Shown in pieces: positions 45,125 through 49,740 of a stretch of DNA of 64,000 nucleotides (its first letter is position 1; the number at the start of each line of letters is the position of its first letter). Under the pieces are notes generated by a model. It did not search any database and was not told the origin of the DNA. It saw only the letters and a program-made list of their open reading frames with translations. The stretch is from a virus (lineage: Duplodnaviria > Heunggongvirae > Uroviricota > Caudoviricetes): IMG/VR virus record IMGVR_UViG_3300029516_000004, positions 31,480 through 95,479 of that record; one strand, written 5' to 3'. Position numbers and translations under genes: made by a program.

Positions 45125-45634
45125 ATGGGGCACAATAACACTAAGGGAAACCGTAAATTTATTAAGGGCCGCTATACTGCCAACGCGGCCAAAGGCGAAC
45201 GACTGGTATCTTCTGAATTCCAGCTCACTTTTGCAGGCCATGAAGATATCAGCGTACTGGTTCGCACGTCGCAAATTCCTGAAATGACCCGCGAGGATGT
45301 GGAGGACTATGGTCCGAATGGTGTGAAGTTCAACCAGCACGGTCCAATTCGAAACTCTGGGGAAATCCAGGTCCAGTGCGTGGAGACTATCGAAGGCGAT
45401 ATTCTTCAGTTCATTAAAGATCGCATTGCGGCGAAGGACTATGTTGATATCACGATGGCTGCGACCCCTGAATCCAAATCTTCCGGGGTTAACGCTGTGA
45501 CTAAAGCTGCTACAACAATTGAAATGTTGGACTGCAAAATCTACAGTGATGCAATCGACTTTAGTACCGAAGATGTGACTGCTGCTGTGCGCCCGTCACT
45601 TCGTATCGTCTACAACTGGATTGAGTGGGATTAA
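45125..45634 (+). CDS. putative tail tube protein (169 aa)
   Basis: Size and position after sheath gene. Confidence 0.5.
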   Translation: MGHNNTKGNRKFIKGRYTANAAKGERLVSSEFQLTFAGHEDISVLVRTSQIPEMTREDVEDYGPNGVKFNQHGPIRNSGEIQVQCVETIEGDILQFIKDRIAAKDYVDITMAATPESKSSGVNAVTKAATTIEMLDCKIYSDAIDFSTEDVTAAVRPSLRIVYNWIEWD

Positions 45635-45653
45635 GAGTCATCCCTTGTATTTT

Positions 45654-45677
45654 AAAGCTCCTTCGGGAGCTTTTTTT
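45654..45677 (+). terminator. rho-independent terminator ending the head/sheath operon
   Basis: AAAGCTCC-ttcg-GGAGCTTT followed by TTTTT. Confidence 0.7.
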
Positions 45678-45805
45678 ATAACTATTTTATATAAACATGC
45701 ATCGATAACATTGTCTGGAGTTTTATGTTAGATTATTAATGTTCTAATAAACTACAATTATTGAGGTAGATGTTTGTGCCTGTACTGTTAAAGGGGGACT
45801 CTAAA

Positions 45806-46402
45806 ATGGCTGTGATTCCAATGTCGTACTCCCCGGGTACTGTCGCTCGTCGATTTTCGATCCTGGACGGAGTTACCATCCAGGGTGTGCTTTACCAGGT
45901 TATATGGGATTCCAAAACCCCATTTGCAGCTGTAATAGAGGCTGCGCCTTCTATTATCGATGGTGATATGCGCCATAAGGTTGTCGCCACTCTTGAACTT
46001 CAACGTCGCCCACAGCTTGAAGGCGTACTGGTGAGGAAGTTCTGGGAAGATAACGATGTTGCCCAGATTGAAGGTATCGTGGTTGATGGAATCGTCCGGG
46101 ATGTCGGTTTAGCCACTTTTGTTTATGAAACCGTAGCTTCAAAAGCCGGAGTTGTTTTGCTAAGTGACAATGAGCAATACGAAGGCGGAAAGGCTCTTTG
46201 GCAGCACATCGCTCGTCGTTCTTCCGAACTAAAAGTTTTTATCCTGGACACCGATACTGCTCAGTATTACCCATTTGATGGCGAACGTGTTTGCTATGAC
46301 GGGAAAAGTATTCCTGAATCCGAGATATGGAGTGAACATCCGGATCGAAGTAAGCATGGGGTTGTTCTTGTCGCAGAATCCATAACTGGAAAGGCGGCAT
46401 AG
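45806..46402 (+). CDS. hypothetical protein in an isolated transcription unit
   Basis: ATG at 45806 has AAGGGGGAC RBS (ORF track begins 45770); AT-rich upstream region after a terminator. Confidence 0.5.
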   Translation: MAVIPMSYSPGTVARRFSILDGVTIQGVLYQVIWDSKTPFAAVIEAAPSIIDGDMRHKVVATLELQRRPQLEGVLVRKFWEDNDVAQIEGIVVDGIVRDVGLATFVYETVASKAGVVLLSDNEQYEGGKALWQHIARRSSELKVFILDTDTAQYYPFDGERVCYDGKSIPESEIWSEHPDRSKHGVVLVAESITGKAA

Positions 46403-46689
46403 CAGTAAAAAATTCCTTGCTCCTTGACAGAGGAGAGGATTAATCTAAGTACGCTAAGCATAGGTATGGCCCCGGTTAATGTTAAGCGTTGTGCGGGACG
46501 CATAATGTTTACTGGGGCTTTCTTTTACCTATTTTGGGATAATCCTGAATTCCGTAGTATTTTGTATCGGCTGCGGCTGCATCAGCGTTTGACTCTATTT
46601 CTATAGAAATCACCTGGAATGGTGAATACCCACATCAGAAGAAACGTTGCAGCAAACATGATCCCTAATGGCCAGACCGCGCCAAAGAA

Positions 46690-48050
46690 AATCCATAGTG
46701 ACTGCTCCCCGCCCTGTCGGGCGAGGCTTCCCACTTCTTAAGCCGCAACCGTCTGTGTGACGGATTTACGCTGGCCTCCATGGGCAGAAACGACGAGTCC
46801 CGCCGCTTGTAATTCCAGTATTCCCTTGCGTTTGATGTTGAGCGCCGCATTGATATCGCGGTCATGTTCAACTCCACACTCTGGACACTGCCAGAAGCGC
46901 TTATGTAATGGCATCTCCGACATTTTGTGACCGCAGCAGTGGCAGGTTTTCGAACTGGCGAACCATTGATCCAGTTTCACCAGATGCACACCTTTCTCTG
47001 TTGCTTTGTATTCCAGTTTTGTGATGAATCCAGACCATCCAGCATCGCCTATCGCACGAGCCAGATGGTGATTTTTCATCATATTTGCCGTTTTCAATGT
47101 CTCGACAATTATCGCTTGGTTTTCGTCAACAATTGCGCGAGATAACTTGTGCTGGAAATCGGCACGGGCACTGGCTACCCGTTCGTGAACGGCTGCAAGT
47201 TGTATTCTGGCTTTGCGCCTGTTTGCGCTCCCTTTTTTCTTACGGGACAGTGCTTTCTGCTTCCGGCGCAGGTTGCGACTTGCATTGATTAGGTGGCGGG
47301 GACTGGCAATTTTATTGCCGTCCGATTTGATGACAAAATGCGCCAGCCCCATATCCAGCCCTGTCACATTTGATATCAGTGCGGGCTTTGCCGGCGCTTC
47401 CATCCCGTCGTCACAGAGTAACGACGCGTAGTATTTCCCGGTTGCGCTGCGGCTCAACGTGATACTTTTCAGCATTCCCGTAATTTCACGATGTAAACGC
47501 GCTTCAATCGGCAAGATTTTCGGTATTTTTATCGCACCATCAAGGACTTTTATGCCAACACAATGATAGCTAGATTGTCTGCCGTGTTTACTTTTAAAGG
47601 TAGGTTTACCTGCTTTCAGTTTCGGATTGAAAAAGTTAGAAAAAGCCACGTCGAGGTTAATTACCGCCTGCTGCAACGCAATAGAATCATATTCTTTAAG
47701 CCATCCATACCGGCGGGATTTCTTCGCCACTGCAAGCAGTGGTTTGAGGTCTTTACGCGGGTTTAAATTTACGCGGTGCCGCTGGTAAGAATGTTTCTTG
47801 ATATGCAGAGCTTTGTTGTACACAAAACGCACTGCACCGAACTGGGCGTTGATAAATTCAGCCTGTTCTGGTGTCGGATAGATGCGTACTTTTGTTGCTC
47901 TTAACATAGTCACCGCTCATTGGTACAGGTTTTTATGCTAACACCGTAATAATATTTTTAAAGCCCTTCGGGCTTTTCCGCCTTTCCTACCCGCCCGCAT
48001 TGGGCGAGGGTTCTCGGCGGTTTTTCGCTGAAAACGCCTGGTGACTCCAG
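46690..48050 (-). mobile_element. IS200/IS605-family insertion element carrying tnpB only (boundaries approximate)
   Basis: Intact tnpB flanked by sub-terminal hairpins sharing CGCCC-N5/6-GGGCGAGG at both ends (46713-46730 and 47997-48014) plus AAAGCCCTTCGGGCTTT hairpin at 47956-47972. Confidence 0.6.
46738..47913 (-). CDS. tnpB: TnpB (OMEGA RNA-guided nuclease; RuvC-like plus zinc finger), 391 aa
   Basis: RuvC-I GLDMG, RuvC-II IIVETLK, zinc finger CHCCGH...CPECG, RuvC-III HDRDINAALNI. Confidence 0.85.
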   Translation of the reverse strand: MTMLRATKVRIYPTPEQAEFINAQFGAVRFVYNKALHIKKHSYQRHRVNLNPRKDLKPLLAVAKKSRRYGWLKEYDSIALQQAVINLDVAFSNFFNPKLKAGKPTFKSKHGRQSSYHCVGIKVLDGAIKIPKILPIEARLHREITGMLKSITLSRSATGKYYASLLCDDGMEAPAKPALISNVTGLDMGLAHFVIKSDGNKIASPRHLINASRNLRRKQKALSRKKKGSANRRKARIQLAAVHERVASARADFQHKLSRAIVDENQAIIVETLKTANMMKNHHLARAIGDAGWSGFITKLEYKATEKGVHLVKLDQWFASSKTCHCCGHKMSEMPLHKRFWQCPECGVEHDRDINAALNIKRKGILELQAAGLVVSAHGGQRKSVTQTVAA

Positions 48051-48064
48051 ATTAGAGCAATCTA

Positions 48065-48910
48065 TCACCCTCTGAATCCTGCCGGTATACCCCATTGTTC
48101 GTTATCTTTATTTTTGGCTAAAACCGCATTAAGAGCTTCGTTTACCGTCATGCAATGCGGCAGATTATCGAAGTTTGATACCCCGCCAATATCAGGAGAA
48201 CGCTTGTTCTTCAGGTAAGCATATTTCCGCGCTGCCGCCTCTACTTTCTGCTTGAACTCATGTTTTTGAGCGCGTTTTTTGGATAACCGCAGATTGTCAG
48301 CCTTTGCTTTTGCCTCAGCGATCCATGAAGTCAATTTTTTGAGTCTGCTCGTTCCGGCACCGCCGGAAACTGATCTTTTTGTTTTTTTAACTTGTGACTT
48401 CTTATTCTTTATTGCCACGTCATCCTGACAGGGGGAAGGGGTATCATTTTGACATGGGGGTGTGGATAAAAAATTAAATAAAGCCAATGTTTTAGCGAGA
48501 ACAGCTTTAACCTTGGTTGCCGCTGAAGAGATCTTTAATTTGCTTTCAATCAGCGCATTTTTGGCTTGTTGTGCGAAGGCCAAAAAGGATGGCGTAAACC
48601 GGTACAGGTTAGCGCGACGTTCACGGTGATCGCCGATAACAATCTCTACAGACAGAATTCCTTTGTTTACAGCTTCACGGAATGCACGAACGACGGTTGA
48701 TTGGCTATAACCAGTTTCTGCCGCGATCAGGCGGTGAGGCTTGTGAATGAAGTATTCACTGGTTGTTGCCGCGAGATTTGCACATTGCGACAGGATATGC
48801 CCGGCGCTACGAGATAAACCGGAGTGTGTTACAAAGCAGGCCAATTCATAGCCAGAAAAAGTAAAATCGCTCATCGTTATACAGCTCAGGAAAGTGACTT
48901 TAGCCAGCAT
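48065..48910 (-). CDS. repL: RepL lytic replication initiator (281 aa)
   Basis: 281-aa ORF downstream of kilA in the c4-icd-ant-kilA-repL arrangement. Confidence 0.8.
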   Translation of the reverse strand: MLAKVTFLSCITMSDFTFSGYELACFVTHSGLSRSAGHILSQCANLAATTSEYFIHKPHRLIAAETGYSQSTVVRAFREAVNKGILSVEIVIGDHRERRANLYRFTPSFLAFAQQAKNALIESKLKISSAATKVKAVLAKTLALFNFLSTPPCQNDTPSPCQDDVAIKNKKSQVKKTKRSVSGGAGTSRLKKLTSWIAEAKAKADNLRLSKKRAQKHEFKQKVEAAARKYAYLKNKRSPDIGGVSNFDNLPHCMTVNEALNAVLAKNKDNEQWGIPAGFRG

Positions 48911-48939
48911 TACAATGCTGGTGGTTCTTACTACGTCTG

Positions 48940-49740
48940 TTAGCGCGTTGCCGCGACAGGTACCAGCACACCAGCATCAAGCAATCGCTTCATCAGCCAC
49001 TGCTGACCTTTGCCGGTTATACGAGTCGTGAAAGAAATCCTGCTTCCATTGCTTGTATCGATCACGGTTTCTTTAAGGGTGAAATACCCACGGGATATGT
49101 ATTCTTGTTTGGGGACGTTTCTGCGTTCACCGGTTGCGATCAGAATTCCGTTATCACGCAACCAGGTGAAGAGATAGTTTTGGCCCAGGCCGAGCACTTT
49201 GGCATAGTTGCCGATTAGAACCCCGCTGGCGGTAGCAACGCGTTCGGCGAATTCGACTTTAGGTGCATCCATCAGCATTTTTTGCTCCAGCCGTTGCTTT
49301 TGCTCTGCCAGGTCAGCAGCCAAACGGAGAGCTTCTGGGAGGCTCTTCGGAATAGCAGGTTGTAATCTTCCAGCTCGATAGTCGATAAATGTCTGGTTTA
49401 CCTTCAGCCGAAACGCGGGAGAAATCCAACCAGCGTACTCCACTGCGAGCAATTCATGGGCAAAAGTGCCGCCGCCACGGCCTTCGAACGAAACTATGCA
49501 ATTCTGCATAGTTTCTTTTTCAAGCTCTTCGATGAGCTGTTTAGCTGACAGCGTTCTTAGCCATTGAGCTGGCGCTTTATGGGCACCGAGTCCGCTCGCT
49601 CTGTGTAGAGCATTAAGGTTGTAACGGCCAGCGCGGTCGGTCGTAATTTCAACACCACAAATAACAGGCAGAGAGGTTGAAGGATCGACATTTTGATGAA
49701 GGTTTGATATATTCATATCCGCATTGAATGTTTGTTGCAT
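48940..49740 (-). CDS. kilA: KilA (266 aa), shares C-terminal domain with Ant
   Basis: C-terminal ~140 aa paralogous to Ant C-terminus (LPEALRLAA-LAEQK...GKGQQWL). Confidence 0.8.
   Translation of the reverse strand: MQQTFNADMNISNLHQNVDPSTSLPVICGVEITTDRAGRYNLNALHRASGLGAHKAPAQWLRTLSAKQLIEELEKETMQNCIVSFEGRGGGTFAHELLAVEYAGWISPAFRLKVNQTFIDYRAGRLQPAIPKSLPEALRLAADLAEQKQRLEQKMLMDAPKVEFAERVATASGVLIGNYAKVLGLGQNYLFTWLRDNGILIATGERRNVPKQEYISRGYFTLKETVIDTSNGSRISFTTRITGKGQQWLMKRLLDAGVLVPVAATR

Follow-up and report, generated by a model that had tools for sequence, protein, structure and literature searches.

IS608 of Helicobacter pylori, the peel-and-paste model, has tnpA and tnpB oriented alike and TTAC as its target. 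The element described here resembles it in its sub-terminal imperfect hairpins, its tetranucleotide-specific 3' insertion, the lack of duplication and the scarless excision, but it encodes no TnpA. In ISDra2 of Deinococcus radiodurans, the omega-RNA shares sequence with the 3' end of tnpB and with the right end, and the present element has the same layout; the TAM of ISDra2 is TTGAT, whereas TCAG or TTAG is predicted here. The tnpB-only IS605 elements (ISGst of Geobacillus stearothermophilus and the IS1341-type group) hold tnpB and an omega-RNA between conserved ends and have no tnpA. They can be mobilised in trans, their TAM covaries with the left-end DNA guide, and about 75% of tnpB loci are non-autonomous and without tnpA (10.1101/2023.03.14.532601). 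Our element differs from these in clade and host, in being carried by a phage-plasmid and in being a mosaic of two lineages. Its nearest described relative is ISEc46. Canonical ISEc46 is 1765 bp long, with tnpA transcribed divergently and TTAG as its insertion target, whereas the copy analysed here is 1330 bp, lacks tnpA and follows TCAG; hairpins and right-end terminus are the same in both.

The element is a known and ordinary mobile element with an intact tnpB and a guide-RNA scaffold, located in a P1-like phage-plasmid just 3' of repL. Annotations of this insertion exist for phage RCS47 and for RefSeq plasmids, ISEc46 is catalogued, and the biology of TnpB and omega-RNA is well established, so that the locus carries little weight as a discovery. 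Its practical outputs are exact boundaries, a TTAG/TCAG rule with a matching left-end change, and, for an enterobacterial TnpB clade outside the coverage of Rfam, an omega-RNA structure backed by covariation. What is new is a mosaic copy whose guide perfectly matches element-free sibling plasmids.

Identity, boundaries and target

Breakpoints against four element-free P1-like loci (L002, L005, L093, L094) place the whole element at 46698-48027 on the minus strand of the window, the 64-kb stretch of DNA that was analysed. The main features are as follows.

46582..46697, minus: backbone, 3' remnant of a small membrane-protein gene (phrog_3772), first 45 codons missing
46682..46697, minus: predicted 16-nt guide TATGGATTTTCTTTGG, backbone DNA directly 3' of the right end
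46698..46701, minus: motif TCAC, last 4 nt of the right end, replacing the TAM at the occupied site (window match search)
46698..46808, minus: omega-RNA scaffold, about 111 nt (covariation in an alignment of 49 relatives, RNAalifold)
46738..47913, minus: tnpB ORF, 391 aa from GTG 47913, with TAA stop at 46738-46740
47914..48027, minus: left end, with hairpin 47990-48010, join 47945-47953 and a sub-terminal motif
48028..48031, minus: target and predicted TAM, TCAG on the tnpB-sense strand (insertion comparison)
48045..48061, minus: backbone, C1 operator-like 17-mer ATTGCTCTAATCTGGAG (P1 annotation and sequence comparison)

A sequence-only reading of this DNA had proposed a TnpB-only IS200/IS605 element, intact and accompanied by an omega-RNA module, next to repL. 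Protein domains, alignment to solved TnpB structures, ends defined across many insertions and right-end covariation all bear this out. The limits it gave (46600-48060) were too wide, as 46600-46697 and 48028-48060 are backbone, and the element it left to be named is ISEc46. Phage RCS47 has the same element at the identical site, labelled "Transposase ISEc46, IS605 family" in GenBank; it matches the window with 97.7% identity across 1.8 kb, and the two copies of the element are 99-100% identical. Seven plasmids among 5426 complete E. coli genomes have the same junction. For pKBN10P04869B, which is 99.9% identical, RefSeq annotates a 389-aa TnpB. Copies at the repL site are 99.4-99.9% identical to each other, and recent movement is not visible. 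GenBank and RefSeq label copies of this type ISEc46 or InsQ/TnpB, and a literature search on ISEc46 and on TnpB in phage-plasmids found only resistance-genomics surveys and unrelated papers.

The tnpB gene and right end have 95-100% nucleotide identity to chromosomal ISEc46, the first 100 nt only 76%, and tnpA is absent. By these comparisons the element is assigned to the IS200/IS605 family as a tnpA-less derivative of ISEc46, and as a mosaic rather than the canonical element. The Y1 (HUH) transposase TnpA that marks the family is not encoded: a 443-bp segment holding tnpA in canonical ISEc46 is missing, with the join at 47945-47953, and a tblastn search of the whole window with ISEc46 TnpA returned nothing better than E=1.2, in agreement with the earlier reading. 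The element is therefore non-autonomous.

More than 50 independent insertions served to define both ends. The right-end terminus reads ...GCAGTCAC, and ...GGGGAGCAGTCAC stands identical before unrelated flanks; the left end is likewise kept. Each end has a sub-terminal imperfect palindrome; the two share one orientation and persist from insertion to insertion, and there are no terminal inverted repeats. On the plus strand, CGCCC-GCATT-GGGCGAGG (47992-48009) makes up the left-end hairpin, placed at 47990-48010, and CGCCC-TGTC-GGGCGAGG (46709-46728) the right-end hairpin, placed at 46707-46726, the latter also showing compensatory changes. Matching hairpins at both ends had been anticipated correctly, but with loops of five or six nucleotides; they are N5 at the left and N4 at the right. 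The left end also has a sub-terminal GAGAAC (plus strand GTTCTC, 48010-48015) and a hairpin at 47960-47976 that is a remnant of the tnpA terminator.

The element inserts 3' of one particular tetranucleotide and leaves no target-site duplication. The choice of tetranucleotide follows the left end: elements with the GAGAACCC type stand after TCAG (6/6) and those with the GTAAACCC type after TTAG (18/18), so the covariation of TAM and left-end DNA guide known from tnpB-only IS605 elements is seen here too. The empty site sought among P1-like relatives was found in element-free plasmids, where TCAG is joined directly to TATGG, a precise joint with no duplication. An 11-nt left flank apparently common with pHYEC7-mcr1 was dismissed as chance similarity at a TTAG site.

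TnpB and its omega-RNA

The protein matches HTH_OrfB_IS605, OrfB_IS605 and Cas12f1-like_TNB in Pfam and guided_TnpB in NCBIfam (342 bits, cut-off 100), and its residues 5-382 align to ISDra2 TnpB (8h1j/8exa) with E=7e-75. In this alignment the RuvC triad is kept (D187 in GLDMG, E271 in IVETL, D353 in HDRDIN), as are the zinc-finger pairs C324xxC and C343xxC, so that the RuvC segments and CxxC...CxxC finger ascribed earlier to a 391-aa ORF are confirmed. The start is probably ATG 47907, giving 389 aa, as RefSeq has for pKBN10P04869B. A frameshift, named beforehand as an outcome that would count against an intact gene, is absent in the alignment to solved TnpB, and the ORF is full length. Six substitutions separate the protein from chromosomal ISEc46 TnpB (98.5% amino acid identity), none at catalytic or zinc residues. 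The dN/dS of 0.07-0.10 against other tnpA-less lineages points to strong purifying selection on the TnpB family, these lineages included. Thus, tnpB is predicted to encode an intact RuvC/zinc-finger RNA-guided nuclease, and a nuclease-dead, TldR-like regulator is ruled out by the catalytic triad.

The scaffold runs from the 3' part of tnpB through the right end. Its stems, from RNAalifold and pair counts, are listed below.

46808-46802 with 46794-46788, minus: stem 1
46784-46780 with 46734-46730, minus: stem 2
46777-46770 with 46746-46740, minus: stem 3a
46763-46759 with 46753-46749, minus: stem 3b
46726-46719 with 46714-46707, minus: stem 4, the right-end hairpin

Compensatory changes occur in 17 of the 35 pairs, and 98.4% of cells are paired across the 49 sequences. 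None of 500 shuffles matched the observed values, and slid controls were 30-56% paired with at most five covarying pairs. The structured RNA expected of an OMEGA system is thus supported by covariation and not by folding energy, as the fold of the single sequence does not stand out from shuffles (z=-1.65). The lack of a conserved right-end structure, also named beforehand as counting against an OMEGA module, is not what the 49 relatives show. The covariance search with Rfam models that had been proposed did not detect the scaffold: no omega-RNA family was found over 45500-49500 (E<=1), and the best match was a non-significant HgcC (E=0.84) over the right end. An ISDra2-style pseudoknot (AGUC/GACU) can be drawn; it is 92.8% paired, shows no covariation and is broken in 7 of the 49 sequences. 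RNAalifold also proposed a long-range helix (46848-46844 with 46705-46701) that never varies and competes with the pseudoknot; it was left out of the pair count.

It could be argued that this pairing reflects single-stranded DNA hairpins read by TnpA and not an RNA. IS200/IS605 ends do fold in this way for TnpA (10.1101/2023.03.14.532601), and helix 7 of the alignment is the TnpA-type right-end hairpin. However, four more covarying helices reach 110 nt into tnpB, far past any TnpA site. Many pairs in the scaffold are G:U, which point to a sense-strand RNA; several positions are mostly G:U and would be A-C mismatches on the other strand, poorly tolerated in DNA. The layout also corresponds to stems 1-4 of the solved ISDra2 omega-RNA, whose spacing from the 3' end is almost equal (description in PMC10097598). 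We regard the DNA reading as highly improbable.

By the rule established for TnpB (PMC8612924, PMC10097598), the guide would be 46697-46682. The sole match in the window to TCAG plus guide is the right-end junction itself, which has TCAC instead of TCAG.

Mosaic origin and the repL site

The first 100 nt of the element are 91-97% identical to three plasmid tnpB-only elements (L090, L091, L007), and the switch from left end to body lies near nt 100-200. The left end derives from a plasmid-borne, TCAG-targeting tnpB-only lineage, and tnpB and the right end derive from canonical ISEc46. The TnpB body is of the type found in the TTAG-targeting lineage, with Y75 and I78, whereas the TCAG lineage has F75 and M78. 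I78 aligns with F77 of ISDra2, a TAM-contact residue; in our own alignment-based mapping, the ISDra2 contacts Y52/S56/K76/F77 correspond to P52/L56/S77/I78. Because the body is TTAG-type and the left end and site are TCAG-type, the nuclease may not accept TCAG as the TAM at its own donor joint. One possibility, if an unlikely one, is that the mosaic uncoupled target choice by TnpA (TCAG) from TAM choice by TnpB (TTAG), and if so it would offer a natural experiment on the co-evolution of the two specificities.

At its left, 17 nt separate the element from the C1 operator behind repL. The operator-like 17-mer is at the position of P1 Orlf (former Op55), 3 bp past the repL stop, and its sequence is unchanged in the four element-free loci; the element therefore did not truncate it. 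The neighbourhood had been read correctly as the repL 3' end and a C1-operator-like sequence, although the latter had been called partial. At its right, an AT-rich orphan gene had been proposed. The element instead abuts the phrog_3772 remnant, which PGAP annotates as a pseudogene 'missing N-terminus' in element-free plasmids as well, and the 210-aa ORF at 45770-46402, at a distance of 296 bp, is a member of phrog_7522 (E=5e-146), hence no orphan, and is not AT-rich (GC 0.45-0.48).

The suggestion that backbone sequence downstream of repL was displaced or interrupted is half correct. A stretch of 143 bp found in many P1-likes is missing, and the element is exactly at the deletion junction, but element-free P1-like plasmids, pTetA_020022 and pExPEC1 for example, commonly have the same deletion.

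Predicted activity and rival explanations

Our favoured explanation, which we hold to be very probable, is a non-autonomous ISEc46-derived element with an intact tnpB, an omega-RNA and a guide taken from its flank. Expression, RNA processing, TAM recognition, nuclease activity and mobilisation in trans are the parts that we infer, by analogy with described TnpB systems (PMC8612924, PMC10097598, PMC10278001, 10.1101/2023.03.14.532601). With tnpA lost and both sub-terminal hairpins and both cleavage motifs kept, the element would move only when another source, such as a chromosomal ISEc46, provides a Y1 transposase in trans. The RNA would run from the scaffold into guide TATGGATTTTCTTTGG, copied from the flanking backbone. 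The TnpB-RNA complex would then cut the element-free joint, TCAG followed by TATGGATTTTC..., and so favour retention or re-acquisition of the element by recombination, while the occupied site would be spared because the right end finishes with TCAC and not TCAG.

How tnpB would be transcribed is less obvious. Within the left end, no sigma-70-like promoter scored high enough to reach the scan threshold, and the promoter and terminator scan gave no above-chance site accounting for tnpB or omega-RNA transcription. The promoter TTGATA-16-TAAAAT of the canonical left end, itself read by eye, has given way to a weaker TTTAAA-16-TAGCAT. As the scan found no terminator-like site on the minus strand between repL and tnpB, read-through from the C1-controlled kilA-repL operon is possible, and transcription might perhaps be coupled to C1 de-repression.

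These points also bear on whether the element is a stranded relic, a fixed and immobile passenger of its plasmid lineage whose TnpB has no useful role here. The mosaic of TCAG left end and TTAG TnpB, which may mismatch its own site, the replacement of the canonical tnpB promoter region, which may leave it short of an adequate promoter, and the rarity and near-identity of the copies at this site (7 of 5426 genomes, recent movement not visible) would all fit such a fate. It is nevertheless unlikely, given an intact ORF with all catalytic residues, strong purifying selection in the family even among tnpA-less lineages, two intact ends with their cleavage motifs, and the possible kilA-repL read-through. 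A different history would make the element itself the cause of the 143-bp gap: a tnpB-only element at TCAG and an ISEc46 at TTAG 143 bp downstream would have stood in tandem, recombination between them would have deleted the 143 bp and tnpA and left the mosaic, and the gapped element-free plasmids would be products of precise excision. On the tnpB-sense strand the 143 bp are indeed bounded by TTTTCAG and CTTAG, the targets of both lineages, the element is a mosaic of left end and body with its switch near nt 100-200, the joint in element-free plasmids is exact and scarless, and coincidence of element and deletion junction seems unlikely for two independent events (about 1 in 700 TCAG sites per plasmid by our own rough estimate). 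However, the predicted intermediate junctions (LE joined to CTAAGATCTCC, and CCGACCTCAAA joined to GTGACTGC) had no record at 80% coverage or more in the 5426 complete E. coli genomes, and the deletion has a 3-nt microhomology (AGT), so that an ordinary slip is possible. Moreover, the left flank of the element-free deleted plasmids differs by about 17% (identity of 82-83.5% across 46441-46697), the mismatches being concentrated in 46441-46597, and these plasmids are therefore not recent excision products of this lineage. On balance we find the tandem history rather doubtful.

Returning to the non-autonomous element with a flank-derived guide, its guide raises one further prospect. TCAG followed by the predicted guide side matches perfectly (30/30 nt) in common element-free P1-like plasmids with the 143-bp deletion, such as pTetA_020022 and pExPEC1, and L093 and L094 show this match. 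A resident P1-like that carries the element could therefore cleave a sibling beside repL, whether incoming or co-resident, and the sibling would be excluded or converted. We consider it quite unlikely that the element acts as such a weapon or drive among sibling phage-plasmids. The same match nonetheless offers a cheap E. coli/P1 system for studying TnpB homing and inter-plasmid interference.

Element ends and the TnpB protein

A tnpB-only IS200/IS605 insertion beside repL, as described in the sequence-only reading, is indeed present, and both the insertion sequence and its mechanism are already known. The new points are modest: the omega-RNA structure of the clade, a TTAG/TCAG rule, a mosaic origin and a perfect match of the predicted guide to sibling plasmids.

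Megablast against phage records found a 1.8-kb counterpart in RCS47, 97.7% identical, where the gene at this place is labeled "Transposase ISEc46, IS605 family". Comparison with P1-like loci without the element gave breakpoints at 46697/46698 and 48027/48028. Termini were taken from 90 loci (E. coli chromosomes and plasmids, Photorhabdus, Serratia, Aeromonas, Halomonas and others): the tnpB-sense strand starts with CGAAAAAC or CAAAAAC and, in more than 50 independent insertions, terminates in ...GGGGAGCAGTCAC followed by unrelated DNA. Conserved termini and breakpoints thus define an element of 1330 bp (46698-48027), the last 4 nt of its right end being TCAC. The sub-terminal hairpins claimed earlier were found at both ends, the left one reading CGCCC-GCATT-GGGCGAGG and the right one CGCCC-TGTC-GGGCGAGG.

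The target varies with a left-end motif. On the tnpB-sense strand, TTAG precedes elements with GTAAACCC in the left end (18 insertions) and TCAG precedes those with GAGAACCC (6 insertions, window included), the loci being the window, L001, L006-L008, L010-L038, L090-L092 and L095. Such a pattern fits base pairing between the target and a left-end DNA guide; a TAM covarying with a left-end DNA guide has been described for IS605-family elements (10.1101/2023.03.14.532601). In the window, the two sites are:

48010-48015, left-end sub-terminal motif
48028-48031, target

The minus-strand ORF (46738..47913) is uninterrupted, with no frameshift, and encodes 391 aa counted from GTG, or 389 aa from the ATG at 47907, as annotated by RefSeq in pKBN10P04869B, a plasmid 99.9% identical. 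The protein has all three Pfam TnpB domains, scores 342 bits against NCBIfam guided_TnpB (cut-off 100) and aligns over residues 5-382 with ISDra2 TnpB, whose structure is solved (E=7e-75). This alignment assigns D187, E271 and D353 to the RuvC site and C324xxC and C343xxC to the zinc finger, bearing out the earlier claim of an intact gene. Among tnpA-less plasmid lineages, tnpB has dN/dS of 0.07-0.10 at dS 0.7-1.3, a strong purifying selection that argues for a protein in use. At least three residues part the TCAG-lineage from all TTAG-lineage proteins (F75 vs Y75 and M78 vs I78 included), a contrast that is only a lead, given a small sample confounded by phylogeny. Residue 78 corresponds in the alignment to F77 of ISDra2, which contacts the TAM. 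The window TnpB carries TTAG-type residues, yet its site is TCAG, and the nuclease might fail to recognize its own donor joint.

Mosaic origin and the 143-bp junction

Canonical chromosomal ISEc46 is 1765 bp long (one such copy, in strain C1, lies between yebE and ptrB) and carries a 426-nt tnpA divergent from tnpB, labeled "IS200/IS605-like element ISEc46 family transposase". The window copy has 9 bp (47945-47953) in place of the 443 bp holding tnpA, the hairpin at 47960-47976 is a leftover of the tnpA terminator, and no tnpA homologue was found anywhere in the 64 kb. A simple recent deletion of ISEc46 is ruled out by the identity to the canonical form, which is 76% over the first 100 nt and 95-100% over the remainder. 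Compared with the tnpA-less elements on p3R-2, p98205 and pPSS-08-1_2, identity is 91-97% in the left end and 65-81% in the tnpB body. From this contrast, the window copy is a mosaic that joins the left end of a plasmid-borne tnpB-only lineage to the tnpB and right end of ISEc46.

Members without tnpA are common, with many Photorhabdus copies and others on the IncY plasmid pHYEC7-mcr1 and further plasmids; one lies on a conjugative plasmid, in its psiA-ardA leading region, and one adjoins a lytic replication gene in a plasmid with phage-type neighbours (portal, head-processing, Icd-like). This fits a published figure by which some three quarters of tnpB genes have no tnpA nearby (10.1101/2023.03.14.532601). 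The plasmid relatives L090 (p3R-2), L091 (p98205), L007 (pPSS-08-1_2) and L095 (pHYEC7-mcr1) have varied contexts: the conjugative leading region between psiA and ardA, the side of a "lytic replication protein", the side of a HicA toxin gene, and an IncY phage-plasmid downstream of dmt. Segments have been exchanged among these elements; the last 400 nt of L007, for instance, are 98-100% identical to the window. In Photorhabdus the TnpB clade reaches a high copy number, one genome having at least 8 loci (P. akhurstii loci are L012, L017, L019, L022-L025 and L037). Left ends, where located (L016, L025, L026, L028, L030-L032, L038, L052, L080), lie upstream of tnpB by about 150 nt, which means that these copies lack tnpA. 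An ISEc46-type element with a TnpB 88% identical and with ends and TTAG target unchanged occurs on L011 (JAHEOE010000054.1); this contig of 3.3 kb was binned as "Candidatus Paceibacterota" but is most likely enterobacterial and mis-binned.

The right end adjoins the 3' remnant of a gene for an 81-aa membrane protein (phrog_3772, E=1e-53) without its first 45 codons, a loss of 143 bp, and the position of the element coincides exactly with the junction of this deletion. Many P1-like plasmids keep the 143 bp intact. In many others the identical deletion is present without an element, PGAP annotating the remnant as a pseudogene that ends exactly at the junction. The location of the element precisely there, and the TCAG and TTAG that border the missing segment at its two ends, suggested tandem insertion followed by recombination as the source of the gap. 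However, both intermediate junctions predicted by such a route were absent (0/5426 genomes), the deletion has 3 nt of microhomology, and the left flank of the deleted element-free plasmids is about 17% divergent overall, with mismatches mainly in 46441-46597.

Compared with the element-free loci L002, L005, L093 and L094, the left backbone is near-identical over 46598-46697 and about a quarter mismatched over 46441-46597 (43/157 positions). The window-type left backbone, with its 210-aa ORF, is common to SJ46 and RCS47; the alternative carries hok/mok, plus IS421 in L005, L093 and L094. This marks a recombination boundary some 100 bp away from the insertion site.

Omega-RNA and proposed function

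No Rfam family detected an omega-RNA, the top match over the right end being HgcC (E=0.84). A single-sequence fold was no better than shuffles (z=-1.65), so the RNA evidence is comparative. In an alignment of the last 180 nt from 49 non-redundant relatives, RNAalifold predicted 35 pairs, with compensatory changes in 17. By pair counting, pairing held in 98.4% of cells, and none of 500 shuffles reached any of five measures; with partners slid by 1-3 columns, 30-56% of cells paired, with at most 5 covarying pairs. Several predicted pairs are mostly G:U and therefore assign the structure to RNA of the tnpB-sense strand. The stems, in nt from the right end (-111 being 46808), are:

-111..-105 with -97..-91
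-87..-83 with -37..-33
-80..-73 with -49..-43
-66..-62 with -56..-52
-29..-22 with -17..-10

They lie close to the positions of ISDra2 omega-RNA stems 1, 2, 3a, 3b and 4 (PMC10097598). AGUC at -6..-3 could pair with GACU in the loop of stem 1 to give a pseudoknot like that of ISDra2; in the 49-relative alignment it showed zero covariation and was broken in 7 sequences. The HgcC match (17.3 bits, not significant) covers 46687-46797 on the minus strand, overlapping the 3' half of the scaffold and the right-end hairpin; it hints at a possible kinship of HgcC-type RNAs with TnpB guide RNAs.

The predicted guide is the backbone directly past 46698, TATGGATTTTCTTTGG. Under the mechanism established for TnpB (PMC8612924, PMC10278001, 10.1101/2023.03.14.532601), the protein would produce omega-RNA by processing its own transcript and then cut the scarless donor joint left by TnpA-mediated excision, here TCAG followed by TATGGATTTTC... 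Transposition would require TnpA supplied in trans; across 5426 complete E. coli genomes, 493 chromosomal sites carry ISEc46 sequence. The sole window match to TCAG plus guide is the occupied junction, with TCAC for TCAG, as would be expected for self-protection. In pTetA_020022 (L093) and pExPEC1 (L094), two element-free plasmids that share the 143-bp deletion, TCAG is followed by 30/30 nt of the window right-end flank, making both perfect predicted targets; pMB9366_2 (L005), likewise deleted and element-free, has one mismatch to the predicted guide, at position 6.

Transcription is the weakest link of this model. The canonical tnpB promoter region is replaced in the window copy, and no promoter-like site in the left end passed the scan. 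No terminator-like site was found between repL and tnpB on the minus strand, so read-through is conceivable, and tnpB might be read from the C1-controlled kilA-repL operon.

Flanking genes and distribution

Gene order around 46.6-48.1 kb (bplB, a conserved 210-aa ORF, the element, repL, kilA, ant) is the same in RCS47, SJ46 and many E. coli plasmids, and is that of a P1-like phage-plasmid. The element occupies this site in RCS47, 7/5426 complete E. coli genomes and 5 PLSDB plasmids, in copies 99.4-99.9% identical. Past the repL stop lies:

48045-48061, minus strand, C1 operator-like 17-mer ATTGCTCTAATCTGGAG, 3 bp past the stop

P1 has the C1 operator Orlf/Op55, ATTGCTCTAATTATAAC, at the matching place. 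An operator-like sequence beside repL had been noted as partial; the sequence is there, but the 17-mer is identical in element-free relatives, so the insertion did not truncate it. Nor is the 210-aa ORF (45770-46402) the AT-rich orphan that it had been taken for: it belongs to phrog_7522 (E=5e-146), is present in RCS47 and SJ46, and has a GC content of 0.45-0.48.

In many P1-like plasmids, RefSeq/PGAP names repL (48065-48910) "MarR family transcriptional regulator" or "helix-turn-helix domain-containing protein"; the RepL protein has no Pfam or NCBIfam match. Between bplB and the 210-aa ORF, a terminator-like hairpin (45654-45691, minus strand) resembles the 3' end of the sRNA STnc130 at 32.7 bits (E=0.03), under the gathering score.
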